Shown: piece after piece, positions 2,086 through 7,611 of the stretch
Numbering within the stretch: the stretch's first letter is position 1
Layout: the number at the start of each line of letters is the position of its first letter
Source of the DNA: a virus
Lineage: Duplodnaviria > Heunggongvirae > Uroviricota > Caudoviricetes
Length of the DNA stretch: 10,474 nt
Direction: 5' to 3' (one strand)
IMG/VR virus record: IMGVR_UViG_2698536570_000004
Program-made: the position numbers and the translations under genes
Notes under the pieces: generated by a model
What the model was told of the DNA's origin: nothing
Seen by the model: the letters and a program-made list of their open reading frames with translations, nothing else
Database searches by the model: none

Positions 2086-5000
2086 ATGACTCATCAAACA
2101 CACACCATTGCTGAATCCAATAACTTTATCGTCCTTGATAAGTACATCAAAGCTGAGCAAACAGGCGACAGCTACCAGAGCGAATCGGACCTGGAACGTG
2201 AACTGATTCAGGACCTGCGGAATCAGGGCTATGAATTTATATCCGTAAAATCTCAGTCGGCTATGCTGTCCAATGTTCGGGAACAGCTTCAGAGCCTCAA
2301 TGGTGTGGTGTTTAATGACAGCGAGTGGCGGCGTTTCACGGAGCAGTATCTGGACAACCCGAGCGATGGCATTCTGGATAAGACCCGTAAAATCCATATC
2401 GACTATATTTGCGACTTTATTTTTGATGACGAGCGACTTGAGAACATCTATTTGATAGATAAAAAGAATCTCATGCGCAATAAGGTGCAGATTATCCAGC
2501 AGTTTGAACAGACGGGTTCTCATGCTAACCGTTATGACGTCACGATCCTGGTTAATGGCTTACCACTGGTACAAATCGAACTGAAAAAGCGCGGCGTGGC
2601 GATTCGTGAGGCTTTCAACCAGATACATCGTTACAGTAAAGAGAGTTTTAACAGCGAAAATTCCCTGTTTAAGTATCTGCAACTGTTTGTCATTTCTAAC
2701 GGCACCGATACCCGTTATTTTGCCAACACAACAAAGCGCGATAAAAACAGTTTTGACTTCACCATGAACTGGGCGAAATCAGACAACACGCTGATTAAAG
2801 ACCTCAAAGATTTTACCGCTACCTTTTTCCAGAAACATACTCTGCTTAATGTTCTGGTGAACTACAGCGTTTTTGACAGCAGTCAGACGCTACTGGTGAT
2901 GCGACCGTACCAGATTGCTGCCACCGAGCGCATTCTGTGGAAAATTAAGAGCTCCTTTACAGCGAAGAACTGGTCAAAACCGGAAAGCGGTGGGTATATC
3001 TGGCACACTACCGGTTCTGGTAAAACCCTCACCAGCTTTAAAGCCGCGCGTCTGGCAACAGAGCTGGACTTTATTGATAAAGTCTTCTTCGTGGTCGACA
3101 GGAAAGACCTCGATTACCAGACCATGAAGGAATATCAGCGTTTTTCGCCAGACAGCGTCAACGGCTCGGAAAATACCGCAGGCCTTAAACGAAATCTGGA
3201 TAAGGACGATAACAAAATTATCGTCACTACTATTCAGAAACTCAATAACCTGATGAAAGCAGAAAGCGACCTGCCTGTATATAATCAGCAAGTGGTGTTT
3301 ATATTTGATGAATGCCACCGCAGCCAGTTTGGAGAAGCGCAGAAAAACCTGAAGAAGAAATTCAAACGCTATTATCAGTTTGGTTTTACCGGCACCCCTA
3401 TTTTCCCGGAAAACGCCTTAGGCTCAGAAACAACCGCCAGCGTATTTGGTCGTGAATTGCATTCGTATGTAATTACCGATGCGATTCGTGACGAAAAAGT
3501 GCTCAAATTCAAGGTGGACTACAACGATGTGCGGCCACAGTTTAAGTCTTTAGAGACAGAAACTGACGAGAAAAAACTGAGTGCGGCTGAAAATCAGCAG
3601 GCGTTTCTTCATCCCATGCGTATTCAGGAAATCACGCAATATATTCTGAATAATTTCCGCCAGAAAACCCACCGTACCTTCCCTGGCTCAAAAGGTTTTA
3701 ATGCTATGTTGGCAGTGAGCAGCGTGGATGCTGCAAAAGCCTATTACGCGACGTTTAAACGGTTACAAGAGGAAGCAGCTAATAAATCGGCCACCTATAA
3801 ACCGCTGCATATTGCGACAATCTTCTCCTTTGCTGCCAATGAAGAACAAAATGCCATTGGTGAAATTTCCGATGAAACTTTTGATACCAGCGCAATGGAC
3901 AGCAGTGCTAAAGAGTTTCTTGATGCTGCAATTCGTGAGTATAACAGCTATTTTAAAACTAACTTCAGCACCGACAGTAACGGTTTTCAGAACTACTATC
4001 GTGATTTAGCCCAGCGGGTTAAAAATCAGGATATCGATCTGTTAATTGTCGTGGGGATGTTTTTAACTGGCTTCGATGCTCCAACATTGAACACGCTATT
4101 CGTCGATAAAAACCTGCGTTTTCACGGCTTGATGCAGGCATTTTCCCGCACCAACCGTATTTATGATGCAACTAAAACCTTCGGTAATATCGTCACTTTC
4201 CGGGATCTGGAACGCTCAACTATTGATGCCATAACGCTGTTTGGTGACAAAAATACCAAAAATGTGGTTTTAGAAAAGAGTTATGCAGAGTATATGGAAG
4301 GCTTTACTGATGCTGCCACTGGTGAAGCTAAACGCGGCTTCATGACAGTAGTTTCAGAACTGGAACAACGGTTCCCTGACCCTACCAGTATTGAAAGTGA
4401 AAAAGAGAAGAAAGACTTCGTTAAACTGTTTGGTGAATACCTGCGTACCGAGAACATCCTGCAAAACTATGATGAATTTGCCACGCTGAAAGCCCTGCAA
4501 CAAATCGATCTTAGCGATCCTGTTGCAGTAGAAAAATTCAAAGCAGAACATTATGTGGATGATGAAAAGCTCGCTGAATTGCAAACAATTCGTCTCCCTG
4601 CTGATCGCAAGATTCAGGATTATCGTTCTGCCTATAACGATATTCGCGACTGGCAGCGCCGTGAGAAAGAAGCTGAGAAAAAAGAGAAATCAACCACTGA
4701 CTGGGATGACGTAGTTTTTGAGGTCGATTTGCTGAAGTCTCAGGAAATAAACCTGGATTATATCCTTGGACTGATTTTCGAACACAACAGACAAAATAAA
4801 GGCAAGGGCGAAATGATCGAAGAGGTCAAACGCTTAATTCGTTCAAGCCTAGGGAACCGTGCTAAAGAGGGCCTGGTGGTCGATTTTATTCAGCAAACGA
4901 ACCTGGATGATTTACCGGACAAAGCCAGCATCATTGACGCATTCTTTACGTTTGCTCAACGCGAACAGCAACGTGAAGCAGAAGCATTGATAAAAGAAGA

Positions 5001-5202
5001 AAATCTCAATGAAGATGCAGCAAAACGCTATATTCGCACGTCTTTAAAACGCGAATACGCCACCGAAAATGGCACAGAATTAAACGAAACATTACCAAAA
5101 CTTAGTCCGTTGAATCCGCAATATAAAACGAAAAAACAGGCAGTTTTCCAGAAAATCGTCTCGTTTATTGAGAAGTTTAAAGGCGTAGGCGGAAAAATAT
5201 AG
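2086..5202 (+). CDS. hsdR: Type I restriction enzyme R subunit HsdR (1038 aa), type IC-like
   Basis: A 3117-nt ORF with an RBS. It has an N-terminal PD-(D/E)xK-like nuclease region (...[19 protein letters not shown]...), Walker A TGSGKT (about nt 3010-3027), a DEAH-type motif II as DECH (nt 3307-3318), and a TGTP motif III. Its length and co-linearity with hsdM-hsdS fit the EcoR124I-type HsdR as I recall it. Confidence 0.95.
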
Positions 5203-5218
5203 CCCAATTCGTATTTTT

Positions 5219-5246
5219 CTTGCGGGTTCTTAATTAAACCCGCAAG
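5219..5246. other. Stem-loop between convergent hsdR and a minus-strand small ORF (10-bp stem CTTGCGGGTT / AACCCGCAAG, loop CTTAATTA); possible non-canonical terminator
   Basis: A perfect 10-bp inverted repeat read directly. No U-run follows on either strand (TTTTT precedes it on +), so its terminator function is uncertain. Confidence 0.3.
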
Positions 5247-5281
5247 AGACCGTGGGGTTCCAAATGGCTAATATACTCCCC

Positions 5282-5368
5282 TTACCCATGCGCGACAATG
5301 CTGCCAAAAGTGATAGAGAACAGCCAGAAATAGATCGCGGCCATAATGATTTTGAATGCCGTGTTCAT
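5282..5368 (-). CDS. Candidate small hydrophobic protein (28 aa, MNTAFKIIMAAIYFWLFSITFGSIVAHG); small membrane peptide or type I toxin-like
   Basis: ATG at 5368 (minus) is preceded by AGGAG with an 8-nt spacer. The 28 codons are strongly hydrophobic and end at TAA (5282-5284). A possible sigma70-like promoter (TTGATA, 17 nt, GAAAAT) lies upstream on the minus strand around 5425-5455. A 41-codon ORF on the opposite strand (5264-5389) overlaps it, so the coding strand is not settled. Confidence 0.3.
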   Translation of the reverse strand: MNTAFKIIMAAIYFWLFSITFGSIVAHG

Positions 5369-5395
5369 ATCTTCAGCTCCTGTGATTGATTTGAT

Positions 5396-5430
5396 ACATG
5401 CCGCGCCCCTTGCGGCATGTTTTTATTTTC
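5396..5430 (+). terminator. Rho-independent terminator-like hairpin on the + strand (stem ACATGCCGC / GCGGCATGT followed by TTTTTATTTTC)
   Basis: A 9-bp GC-rich stem (5396-5404 / 5412-5420) with a 7-nt loop, followed directly by a T-rich run to 5430. On the minus strand the same hairpin would sit in the 5' UTR of the small ORF at 5368. Confidence 0.55.
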
Positions 5431-5456
5431 ACCTTCTCTGCTTTAAATATCAAGAT

Positions 5457-5469
5457 TTATTAGAGCAAT
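5457..5469 (+). repeat. 13-bp motif TTATTAGAGCAAT, copy 1; followed by TATTGCT, making the palindrome AGCAAT-T-ATTGCT (5464-5476)
   Basis: Exact 13-mer shared with 7599-7611 and, as reverse complement, with 7546-7558. It overlaps the stop codon of the minus-strand phosphatase gene. Confidence 0.7.
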
Positions 5470-5975
5470 TATTGCTGATGAAGAAGCGCGTTTTCATACT
5501 CCCTGACCATTAACGTAAGCACGCCGTGACGCCTGAAAACACGCGCCACTTCAATCTTATCTTCCAGCGCGAACGCAATTTTGCTTAGACCAATTTTCTT
5601 AAGGAGATCAATCTTTGCTGGACCGTCATTTCTGTCATCGGTGGCAGGACGCATAGATAGCAAAGGCTCATCCCCGTTTGTTACGTACTTTCGCAGCCAG
5701 GCTCATGTTTTATCCCTTGCGATCTCACAGCGCCCGGTTACAAACCAGACCGTGTAAACGTTATATAACTGGCGCACAATATCAATAACTGGAGTTATGG
5801 GAGTATCAGTGTCACAGGCGAGATTAAACTCGTTCCAGTCCTTTGTTAATGCACCTTTACCTGGTGGCGGAAGCAAATGCAGTCTGTCTTCAGTTGCCTC
5901 TGATATTGTTCCATCAATATCAACTATGACGATATACGGACGTTCATGGTGTGCGTGTTGGTTGAAAATACTCAA
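5469..5975 (-). pseudogene. HAD-superfamily phosphatase resembling phage polynucleotide kinase 3'-phosphatase domains, interrupted by an in-frame TGA
   Basis: TTG start at 5975 preceded by a strong SD (GAGGAGG). The N-terminal part has HAD motif I (IVIVDIDGT) and, from recall of T4 Pnk, a ...CDTD..TGR... segment. The frame hits TGA at 5703-5705 and then continues in the same frame to TAA at 5469-5471, with a DDR-containing C-terminal part. The track shows this as two ORFs (5703..5975 and 5469..5663) in one frame. Confidence 0.55.
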
Positions 5976-5992
5976 ATGCCCTCCTCATTGGA

Positions 5993-6029
5993 CGAAAAAA
6001 ATGCTGGTGGGACGCACTCCACCAGCATT
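5993..6029 (-). terminator. Rho-independent terminator for the minus-strand 420-aa gene (stem AATGCTGGTGG / CCACCAGCATT followed by a U-run on the minus strand)
   Basis: An 11-bp perfect inverted repeat (6000-6010 / 6019-6029) with an 8-nt loop. The A-run at 5995-6000 on + gives a T-run immediately 3' of the hairpin on the minus strand. It lies 20 nt downstream of the stop at 6049-6051. Confidence 0.65.
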
Positions 6030-6048
6030 AAAAGTGACACTGTAACTA

Positions 6049-7311
6049 TCAGCGAACGTAAATAGTACCGCCGTTCTCTTTTTCCCATGCATCGCTACGT
6101 GCATAGCAAACATCGAGAAGTCTTCTTGCCGCAGTTTCTTCTAAACCCAATTCAACAACCAACTGCTCATGACGGCGGGTAACTACATCAAATAGGCTAT
6201 GCAGCCCTTTATTGGCCAGTTCATCAATGAATTCCGGTTCGAACGGTAGCTCTGCATCTGCCAACATAACCTCTTGCGCCCACTCGACACGGCGGACCAG
6301 TTCCGGGCGGCGGCTTTCCATCTCTTTACAGATCATTTCATGGAAGAACTCTACCCAACCTTCCGGCTGGAACTCGCGGAAAATGGCCAACGGCTGGAAG
6401 TTTGGCATCAACCATTCGTTGATACGGATATCAATGGCATAGCCCATGTCACAGCAGAACTGATAAGCAAAGTCCAGCTTAGAAACGATATAAGGACGCT
6501 CGTTATTGAACTCTTTAGGCGATGAGATTCCATAAGCCAGGAGGCGCGGGAAGAATGAGATTTGCCCTAACGTCGGATGGAGTTTGCTTGCAGGAAAACG
6601 GCGCTCAGTAATGCCATACATTTCCTTCTTGAGCATCGCAAATTTAGCATTTTCATTAACCAGCTCGGTAACCTCTGCTTTTTTATTAGCAAATGCCACG
6701 CGCGCCTCGCTTGCATCTTTAATAGCCTTTTTGAGCTGTTGGTTAAGGTCGGCGACCTGCTTACGCAGTTCCTGGCGCTCGCTTTTGGCTTTGTTATAAC
6801 GTTTCTCAAGGTTAAAAGGATCAAGTTTCATGATCTCTTTATATTGAGATTTTAGTGTTGAAATCTGTGAATTCCGCAGCTCAACCATAGCGGTCATTTC
6901 ATTGAGTTTTGTTTCCAACTCAATGCTTATACGTTCGGCATTATCAGCACGCTGGTTGGCGTCATGCGTCGCATCGTCGATGGCATCCTGTTGCTGGCGT
7001 TTCAAATGCTCAATTTGCAGCTGAAGATCTTCAATTTCTTTACCCTTCAGACCGAGATCCAACTGCATATTTTCAGCTGCATCTACCAGGTCGTTATGGC
7101 TATCAGCTTCTGCGTTATAAACATCAATAAGCTGTGCGTGAAGCATCTCAGCTGACTGAACCGCATTATCAAAAAAACGTGCTGTGAGGTCATCACAACT
7201 AACGCGGCGTTGCGCGGCTCGGATGTTCTGAATAATGGCCGGGATACCGGCATTCAGGACGTCAGGGATAGATACATTTTCGATTGATTGGTTTTGTGCT
7301 GAAGTGCTCAT
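6049..7311 (-). CDS. Hypothetical protein (420 aa): N-terminal coiled-coil region of about 230 aa rich in Q/E/K/A, and a C-terminal globular domain of unknown function
   Basis: A long ORF with the ATG at 7311 one nucleotide downstream of the preceding gene's stop, and its own terminator after the stop. No catalytic motif recognised. Confidence 0.75.
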   Translation of the reverse strand: MSTSAQNQSIENVSIPDVLNAGIPAIIQNIRAAQRRVSCDDLTARFFDNAVQSAEMLHAQLIDVYNAEADSHNDLVDAAENMQLDLGLKGKEIEDLQLQIEHLKRQQQDAIDDATHDANQRADNAERISIELETKLNEMTAMVELRNSQISTLKSQYKEIMKLDPFNLEKRYNKAKSERQELRKQVADLNQQLKKAIKDASEARVAFANKKAEVTELVNENAKFAMLKKEMYGITERRFPASKLHPTLGQISFFPRLLAYGISSPKEFNNERPYIVSKLDFAYQFCCDMGYAIDIRINEWLMPNFQPLAIFREFQPEGWVEFFHEMICKEMESRRPELVRRVEWAQEVMLADAELPFEPEFIDELANKGLHSLFDVVTRRHEQLVVELGLEETAARRLLDVCYARSDAWEKENGGTIYVR

Positions 7312-7545: not shown

Positions 7546-7558
7546 ATTGCTCTAATAA
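7546..7558 (-). repeat. 13-bp motif, inverted copy (ATTGCTCTAATAA on +, which is TTATTAGAGCAAT on -)
   Basis: Exact reverse complement of the 13-mer at 5457-5469 and 7599-7611. With the 7599-7611 copy it forms a 13-bp inverted repeat flanking a 40-bp spacer. Confidence 0.7.
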
Positions 7559-7583
7559 AAAACGTGATGAGTGTACATCACGT
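7555..7583 (-). terminator. Candidate rho-independent terminator on the minus strand after the 233-aa gene (stem ACGTGATG / CATCACGT, loop AGTGTA, then T-run on the minus strand)
   Basis: An 8-bp perfect inverted repeat (7562-7569 / 7576-7583). The A-run at 7554-7561 on + gives TTTTTTATT directly 3' of the hairpin on the minus strand. Confidence 0.45.
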
Positions 7584-7598
7584 ATTAAAAATATGGAA

Positions 7599-7611
7599 TT
7601 ATTAGAGCAAT
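7599..7611 (+). repeat. 13-bp motif TTATTAGAGCAAT, copy 3
   Basis: Exact direct repeat of 5457-5469. It lies immediately 3' of the stop codon (7613-7615) of the 233-aa minus-strand gene. Confidence 0.7.

Follow-up and report, generated by a model that had tools for sequence, protein, structure and literature searches.

A conserved hydrophobic peptide gene at the predicted C1-controlled head of a P1 operon, converging on hsdR in a P1-like phage-plasmid

Several described systems resemble parts of the locus analysed here. In the immI operon of bacteriophage P1, which is under control of the C1 repressor, the small upstream open reading frame (ORF) icd is coupled to the downstream gene ant. Small single-helix inner-membrane proteins such as KdpF, YnhF, AcrZ and MgtS are known from enterobacteria, mRNAs can be stabilised by 5′-terminal stem-loops, as by the hairpin in the ompA 5′ untranslated region (UTR), and type I toxin-antitoxin loci include hok/sok, tisB/istR-1, ibs/sib, ldr/rdl and zor/orz, as well as symE/symR, which lies beside hsd in E. 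coli K-12. The closest relative is the OpmgT/PpmgT region of P1 itself, annotated in record AF234172 with OpmgT (formerly Op88), a monovalent operator for C1, and with P1pmgT and P2pmgT, predicted sigma-70 promoters that are both directed toward pmgT; no gene is annotated between promoter and pmgT. Here we analysed the corresponding region in the virus record IMGVR_UViG_2698536570_000004, of which a stretch of 10,474 nt (the window) was available, with attention to positions 5203–5468, where a type I restriction-modification gene, hsdR, meets a cluster of minus-strand genes. P1 is one of the classical model phages, and hundreds of E. coli and Salmonella phage-plasmids, many of them with resistance genes, are built on its backbone.

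The window was 100% identical to plasmid unnamed2 of E. coli AW1.7 (NZ_CP073625, 105.6 kb), and its close relatives were found in >900 E. coli replicons of ~90–140 kb, nearly all of them plasmids. In the RefSeq annotation of the AW1.7 plasmid hsdM-hsdS-hsdR lie on the plus strand, and the minus strand encodes a 3′-phosphatase pseudogene, a 420-AA protein, a metallophosphoesterase and others. The genes of this minus-strand block correspond to P1 pap, pmgS, pmgR and pmgQ. Positions 5278–5468 of the window are the P1 pap–pmgT intergenic region, ~95% identical to AF234172 / NC_005856, and phages P1, P7, RCS47 and SJ46 matched this segment with 94–95% identity. Because both the minus-strand genes and the 5278–5468 segment match P1 and its relatives, we assign the element to the P1-like phage-plasmids. 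We further propose that 5278–5469 forms the conserved beginning of an early operon of P1 under C1 control (the Op88/OpmgT operon), and that the small peptide gene it contains was orphaned here by an incoming hsdMSR cassette; for this reading as a whole we put the probability at roughly 0.65.

The 17-bp operator ATTGCTCTAATAAATCT is located on the minus strand at 5453–5469. It is identical to the AF234172 operator and overlaps both −35 boxes as well as the last base of the pap stop codon. A promoter scan found P1pmgT at 5425–5453 of the minus strand, in agreement with the P1 annotation, with a −35 box TTGATA (5448–5453), a 17-nt spacer and a −10 box GAAAAT (5425–5430). The second minus-strand promoter, P2pmgT, has a −35 box TTGCTC at 5463–5468 and a −10 box at 5440–5445, which reads TAAAGC here vs. 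TAAAAC in P1. The overlap of operator and promoters and the pap neighbour were as in the P1 operon head, but the pmgT side was absent, with pmgT and the genes after it replaced by hsdMSR.

Downstream of these promoters the minus strand carries a 28-codon ORF at 5282–5368, taken from the ORF list and backed by comparative evidence, which encodes the peptide MNTAFKIIMAAIYFWLFSITFGSIVAHG and ends with the stop codon TAA at 5282–5284. It is preceded by a leader box, AATCAATCACAGGAGC (5376–5391, minus strand), in which the Shine-Dalgarno (SD) sequence AGGAG (5377–5381) stands 8 nt before the ATG. A first-pass annotation of the window, made from its letters, had described a hydrophobic minus-strand ORF of 28 codons with a good SD in a convergent junction after hsdR, and our results agree with it on both points, with hsdR ending at 5202. 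The peptide has a grand average of hydropathy of 1.29 and a best 19-residue hydropathy window of 2.08. It is predicted to form a single hydrophobic helix, presumably inserted into the inner membrane. In P1 the ORF sits exactly in the unannotated gap between promoter and pmgT; its TAA overlaps the pmgT ribosome-binding site (RBS) AAGGGGG, and the pmgT ATG follows 9 nt on. As 23 ORFs of at least 20 AA overlap positions 5150–6100, a length of 28 codons is unremarkable by itself; it is the comparison with related phages (conservation, synteny, purifying selection, covariation) that sets the ORF apart from a chance occurrence.

The ORF was intact in 79 of 79 copies with intact context (59 of pmgT type and 20 of hsd type), and within the P1 lineage its first 58 nt formed the lowest-diversity stretch in ~2 kb. 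Cronobacter phage JK004, whose Pap is 74% identical, has the same arrangement after pap: an operator ATTGCTCTAATAAATAT, a −35 box, a hairpin of different sequence, a leader CCAATCAATCACCGGAGC and a 53-AA ORF that starts MHLIFKLAITAFYAWMLTVVITSFK. Searches with the JK004 protein and with a family profile led to three further lineages in Logan assemblies, handled here as L092, L093/L094 and L201, and to a metagenome relative, L195. In all of these the ORF lies downstream of pmgS, or of pmgS and pap, after a C1 operator, a −35 box, a hairpin and the leader box, the latter being nearly invariant in all lineages while its flanks have diverged. Peptide lengths across the five P1-like lineages are 28, 48 and 53 residues. 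In L201 (2835–3000, Logan SRR10079640) pap is missing and operator, hairpin and ORF come directly after pmgS; its 48-AA peptide is intermediate between the P1 and JK004 types. In all lineages with a downstream gene the stop of the ORF overlaps or abuts the next start or RBS (TAA-N9-ATG in P1, ATGA in JK004 and L092, TGATG in L201), and the genes that follow differ among lineages.

Comparison of these lineages revealed a substitution pattern typical of a protein under constraint. Between P1 and L201, 12.5 of 15.7 synonymous sites had changed vs. 11.5 of 59.3 non-synonymous sites over 25 codons (pS 0.80, pN 0.19; p = 2.6e-5). The 53-AA forms compared among themselves gave dN/dS ratios of 0.22–0.39 (p = 0.0004 to 0.02), with p = 0.0013 for L092 vs. 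L093 and p = 0.0004 for JK004 vs. L093. Variable sites in the five lineages were distributed over the three codon positions as 19, 8 and 20; the second position was thus the most conserved, which is what a hydrophobic helix predicts. Residues M1, K6, A11 and W15 were invariant across the homologues. We conclude that the ORF is a genuine protein-coding gene under purifying selection, in which the helix is the conserved part and the C-terminal tail the variable one, the P1 form having almost no tail.

In the searches made the gene was restricted to P1-like elements. A genome-contig search with PmgS returned two close relatives only, a pattern scan of viral contigs found P1-lineage copies only, a metagenome scan with the JK004-type leader yielded one true relative (L195) and seven chance matches, and tblastn of the L092 peptide against PLSDB found no match. 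The comparison with known small-protein and type I toxin families proposed in the first-pass annotation gave no match above threshold in Rfam, Pfam, NCBIfam or PHROG; for Pfam, NCBIfam and PHROGs this holds for all three forms used as queries (28, 44 and 53 AA), none of which had a significant hit. When the 44-AA form was compared with 5.8 billion proteins in a word-indexed search, the only entries to turn up were near-identical ones from E. coli, labelled ‘hypothetical’ or ‘membrane protein’, and a P1vir RNA-seq paper holds nothing on the locus. The regulatory elements are those already annotated in P1, and the peptide gene is new to the P1 reference and the literature, although databases list it as hypothetical or membrane protein. 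Like KdpF, YnhF, AcrZ and MgtS, the predicted product has fewer than 50 residues and one hydrophobic helix and was missed by standard annotation because of its size; unlike them, it is phage-borne, repressor-controlled and confined to P1-like elements, and no sequence similarity to them was found. A small membrane-peptide gene, conserved and not described before, would in this way be added to P1 at the fixed border of its pap–lxr cargo hot spot.

The longer, 44-AA form, which some records carry (‘membrane protein’ in SJ46; WP_001312275), was considered as an alternative gene model and rejected. Its ATG lies inside the hairpin described below and is out of frame in the window, being in frame only where the loop is 2 nt shorter. 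Insertion or deletion of GG in the hairpin loop (5406–5409) sets whether the hairpin ATG is in frame with the small ORF. This polymorphism explains why most P1-type records carry 44-AA calls and others none or a 28-AA call. The 28-codon start with its SD is the consistent one. As a practical consequence, of modest weight, we suggest that P1-type annotations should carry the 28-codon gene and not the 44-codon form that starts in the hairpin.

Between promoter and leader box lies a conserved hairpin at 5396–5420, with a 10-bp stem that includes 6 G–C pairs and can form on both strands, as indicated by folding and covariation. It starts ~5 nt past the −10 box in each lineage, and since it follows the P1pmgT −10 box by 5 nt here, the predicted transcript would begin at the stem foot or ≤2 bases from it. 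The stem is conserved in structure while its sequence changes from lineage to lineage: ACATGCCGC/GCGGCATGT in P1, AAGGCCAC/GTGGCCTT in L201, GGCCGC/GCGGCC in JK004, GGCAGTCAC/GTGACTGCC in L092 and GGCGGTCGC/GTGACCGCC in L093. In the alignment, 94% of cells were paired and 5 of 8 pairs had changed on both sides; the covariation score was 0.53 vs. 0.21 for shuffles, none of 500 reaching the observed value, and ≤0.18 for slid controls. All four wobble variants would form G·U pairs in minus-strand RNA and A·C mismatches in plus-strand RNA (p about 0.06), which is suggestive, though only that, of a structure working in minus-strand RNA. The sense folds of L093 and L094 had −19.8 and −20.1 kcal/mol vs. 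−14.3 and −16.1 kcal/mol for the antisense folds. The conserved role of the hairpin is most likely that of a 5′-proximal stem-loop of the peptide mRNA. It would then resemble the ompA hairpin in being stable, in lying at or within a few nt of the (here predicted) 5′ end and in having its structure kept by compensatory changes; it differs in that, in the P1 lineage, it also supplies the opposite strand with a terminator-like element, and in that both start and stabilisation are predicted here.

The 9-nt loops of the non-P1 hairpins (L091 3029–3037, L092, L093, L201) share the motif RCRCTWYCA despite their different stems, and the P1 loop, AAGGC or AAGGGGC, is unrelated to it. The motif could be a binding site.

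Read on the plus strand, the same stem is followed by a T-run, TTTTTATTTT (5421–5430), which is the complement of GAAAATAAAA, that is, of the −10 hexamer GAAAAT (5425–5430) together with AAAA. An intrinsic terminator on the plus strand, antisense to the leader of the ORF, had been seen in the first pass, and it stands as a terminator-like element made up of the 10-bp stem and this T-run. The 5396–5430 site folds with −15.9 kcal/mol (z = −4.6), and none of 200 shuffles folded as well. It was the only terminator-like site found in 4900–5800, a count that is within chance when taken alone, as shuffles predict 1.2. The A-run that precedes the stem, and gives a U-run when the opposite strand is read, occurs in the P1 lineage only and is missing from the four non-P1 lineages; the terminator-like property of the plus strand is specific to the P1 lineage. 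The site is P1 backbone sequence, present also in P1 relatives that have no hsdR. In this element no other intrinsic stop is plausible for hsdR, and its transcripts probably terminate at this site. One hairpin would thus serve two strands, as the 5′ stem-loop of one mRNA and, in a single lineage, as a terminator for cargo inserted opposite to it.

The gene that converges on the peptide ORF, hsdR (2086–5202, plus strand; ORF list and RefSeq of the identical plasmid), encodes the 1038-AA R subunit of an EcoR124-family type IC restriction-modification system and is the final gene of the hsdMSR cassette. Alignment of P1-type with hsd-type elements placed the breakpoint between cassette and P1 backbone at 5277|5278, 4 nt beyond the stop codon of the small ORF. 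P1-type elements match only 5278–5468 of the window, and hsd-type elements match all of 5203–5468, so that 5203–5277 (plus strand), present in hsd-type and absent from P1-type elements, is a 3′ flank that moves with the cassette. On the AW1.7 plasmid (NZ_CP073625, positions 84000–93000 taken together with the window) hsdMSR occupies the entire interval from phd-doc to the small ORF: the pmgT-to-humD block of P1 has been exchanged for hsdMSR in opposite orientation, and hot, lxr and humD are missing. The pap–lxr interval is a variable hot spot of P1-like plasmids, known as ‘RD-5’ or ‘region 8’, in which type I restriction-modification systems can take the place of pmg genes (PMC6906374; PMC9603915). 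Because hsdMSR fills the interval from phd-doc to the ORF, within such a hot spot, the convergent junction of hsdR and peptide gene is a consequence of cargo replacement and not a designed module.

Within the cassette flank a stable hairpin (5216–5249, both strands, by folding; −19.8 kcal/mol, z = −4.9) contains the perfect 10-bp stem at 5219–5246 that had been noticed in the first pass and extends it to 13 pairs. It is confined to hsd-type elements, and the sole stem substitution seen was uncompensated. As a terminator for either strand it was rejected: the stem is followed by GAGACCG on the plus side and AAAAATA on the minus side, no U-run being found on either strand, and the terminator scan made no call there. 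Lacking the U-run it is no canonical terminator, and it is probably a 3′ stabiliser or a processing stop of the hsdR mRNA.

From these data the following course of events can be proposed. In the lysogen, C1 bound at 5453–5469 would block the two overlapping minus-strand promoters, as deduced from what is annotated in P1. Inactivation of C1 would let transcription begin at ~5418–5420, the base of the stem-loop 5396–5420, which, judging from what is generally known of such hairpins, may shield the mRNA 5′ end from 5′-end-dependent decay. Ribosomes would load at AGGAG (5377–5381) and make the 28-residue peptide, whose translation and membrane location are both predicted. In P1 and its relatives translation of the peptide is probably coupled to that of the variable cargo genes downstream, since its stop overlaps the RBS or start of the next gene. 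In this respect the locus resembles icd-ant, likewise a short first cistron of a C1-controlled P1 operon that abuts the next gene; the peptide is hydrophobic and unrelated to that system, and the coupling here is a predicted one. Icd and Ant are mentioned in PMC8201110. In the present element, replacement of the pmgT-humD cargo by the opposed hsdMSR would have left the peptide gene orphaned and converging on hsdR. Transcripts of hsdR would pass the hairpin at 5216–5249, continue across the peptide gene in antisense direction and, most likely, terminate at 5396–5430. Because hsdMSR took the place of the cargo, we regard this antisense overlap as a by-product of insertion and not as a dedicated antitoxin, even if it could damp leaky expression of the peptide.

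Several observations weigh against this interpretation, above all for the copy in the window. Both the gene call, for all copies, and the predicted transcription starts come from sequence, the former from comparison and the latter from promoter consensus. Within the P1 lineage the 13 variable sites of the ORF fall on the three codon positions as 5, 4 and 4, with no third-position excess (for comparison, 28, 15 and 69 in pap and 25, 21 and 90 in pmgS), so that the coding signal comes from just five diverged lineages. No distant protein homologue appeared in the word-indexed search, and the peptide string was not found in a full-text literature search. The hairpins, which MAFFT left out of register, were aligned manually and their loops filled up with N; this procedure favours structure, and independent lineages are few. 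Finally, non-consensus peptides occurred in 12 of 20 hsd-type vs. 3 of 59 pmgT-type copies (L002–L089; p = 8e-7, a value that ignores phylogeny). The hsd-type changes include charged residues, G22D, G23D and G28R, in or after the helix, and the window peptide itself carries G23S relative to the P1 consensus. The copy in the window may thus be losing function, and the hsd-type replacements, G23S and the pap pseudogene fit a relaxed constraint on a gene cut off from its operon.

Carried further, the same observations would make the region solely the 3′ UTR and terminator of hsdR, with ORF and promoter as leftovers of a displaced P1 operon. This had been the alternative offered by the first-pass annotation, and one part of it holds, as 5396–5430 is the only canonical plus-strand terminator after hsdR; the other part does not, given that the sequence is P1 backbone. 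Weakening of the P2pmgT −10 box and loss of the coupled downstream gene would agree with a relic. Yet the ORF is uninterrupted in 20 of 20 hsd-type copies, its start codon, SD, operator and P1pmgT hexamers are intact, the cassette junction spares it by 4 nt, and the excess of replacements may stem from a few related clones; we therefore hold a mere relic to be unlikely. A quite different view is that the ORF is translated only to load ribosomes onto the cargo gene behind it, the peptide being without function. The tight junction of its stop with the next start in all lineages, in spite of the changing genes downstream, speaks for such a leader, but a coupling device needs neither purifying selection on the amino-acid sequence, with synonymous sites saturated, nor the four invariant residues, and the ORF is kept intact where nothing follows. 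We give this view only a very small probability.

The first-pass annotation had also likened the locus to type I toxin-antitoxin or small membrane-protein loci, and of these the small membrane-protein gene is favoured by synteny in five lineages and purifying selection. In a type I- or excludon-like arrangement the peptide would be a membrane toxin whose SD and start are silenced by the hsdR 3′ UTR or by an unrecognised plus-strand small RNA (sRNA) ending at 5430. The layout does recall that of type I loci, with a short hydrophobic peptide gene whose 5′ region lies under an opposite structured RNA ending at an intrinsic terminator; the sequence properties of a type I toxin (a hydrophobic single-helix peptide of <60 AA) are present, and an hsdR transcript reaching 5396–5430 would be fully complementary to the ORF, its SD and leader. 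A further point in favour is that, in hsd-flank copies that lie outside P1-like elements and hence in a setting where C1 is not expected, an IS1 insertion has removed promoter, SD and codons 1 and 2, although this truncation is a single ancestral event. A sub-threshold Rfam match to the Hfq-dependent sRNA Hrs13 (5355–5426, plus strand; 21 bits at E = 0.13 vs. a gathering score of 52) owes its score to the terminator; it was one of two sub-threshold chance matches at E ≤ 1 in the whole window. Against a toxin-antitoxin pair, a consensus scan found no plus-strand promoter at the 9/12 threshold in 4900–5800, the best in 5180–5440 reaching 8/12 with a 19-nt spacer, and no type I toxin or antitoxin family was matched. 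Unlike type I loci, the antisense overlap exists only where the hsd cassette is inserted, and the ORF is under the phage repressor and heads a polycistronic operon in those elements that lack hsd. The four non-P1 lineages have no U-run on the antisense strand, so that an antisense RNA ending there would be an unconserved feature. With no plus-strand promoter in the consensus scan, no family match, repressor control and an unconserved antisense terminator, a dedicated antisense-RNA gene is not supported. We consider the toxin reading improbable and suggest that the locus is no toxin-antitoxin locus and should not be listed as type I.

A related idea, which we regard as highly improbable, is a repressor-gated antisense switch. 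In the lysogen the hsdR 3′ UTR would silence a membrane-active, possibly toxic peptide; on loss of C1 the Op88 promoters would fire into hsdR and the peptide would be released, while interference or antisense RNA would lower the output of the restriction subunit. If true, such a switch would link the lysis-lysogeny decision with both restriction activity and a peptide directed at the host, and the truncation by IS1 of copies outside P1-like elements would be the outcome of selection against a toxic peptide freed from repression.

The orphaned peptide gene also accounts for an old annotation puzzle, namely the P1 match of the sequence downstream of EcoDXXI/R124 hsd. Record AF234172 already mentions that this stretch is homologous to the DNA that follows hsd in EcoDXXI and R124/3, and we found a third class of records, non-P1 plasmids that match window positions 5203–5361 only, in which an IS1 end adjoins codon 3 of the ORF. 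This class is the ‘R124/3 sequence downstream of hsdR’ mentioned in the P1 record. Outside P1-like elements the hsdR 3′ flank thus keeps ORF codons 3–28, with the IS1 cut at 5361|5362; positions 2501–2720 of L005 (pCTXM15_020026) are an example, and the class comprises about 270 PLSDB records and many E. coli plasmids. This suggests a P1-like phage-plasmid as the source from which the type IC hsd cassette of R124-like plasmids was captured via IS1. In L044 (IMGVR_UViG_2695420521_000002) a different insertion interrupts the small ORF behind codon 19, where AT-rich sequence of unrelated nature is joined to it; this is the second disruption, independent of the first, at the edge of the hot spot.

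Upstream of the operator, pap (3′-phosphatase; 5469–5975, minus strand) is the last gene of the pmgR-pmgS-pap block. RefSeq lists it as a pseudogene with an ‘internal stop’, and an in-frame TGA is found at 5703–5705 (minus strand, codon 91); the gene is intact in most relatives. Two more C1 operators are located between pmgR and pmgQ, at 7546–7562 (plus strand) and 7595–7611 (minus strand), identical to P1 OpmgRb/Op86b and OpmgRa/Op86a, respectively. With these copies present, the whole minus-strand block would be repressor-controlled as in P1. The second of the sub-threshold Rfam matches, to the eukaryotic small nucleolar RNA SNORD12 at 7017–7080 (plus strand; 23 bits vs. a gathering score of 43, E = 0.7), is attributed to chance.

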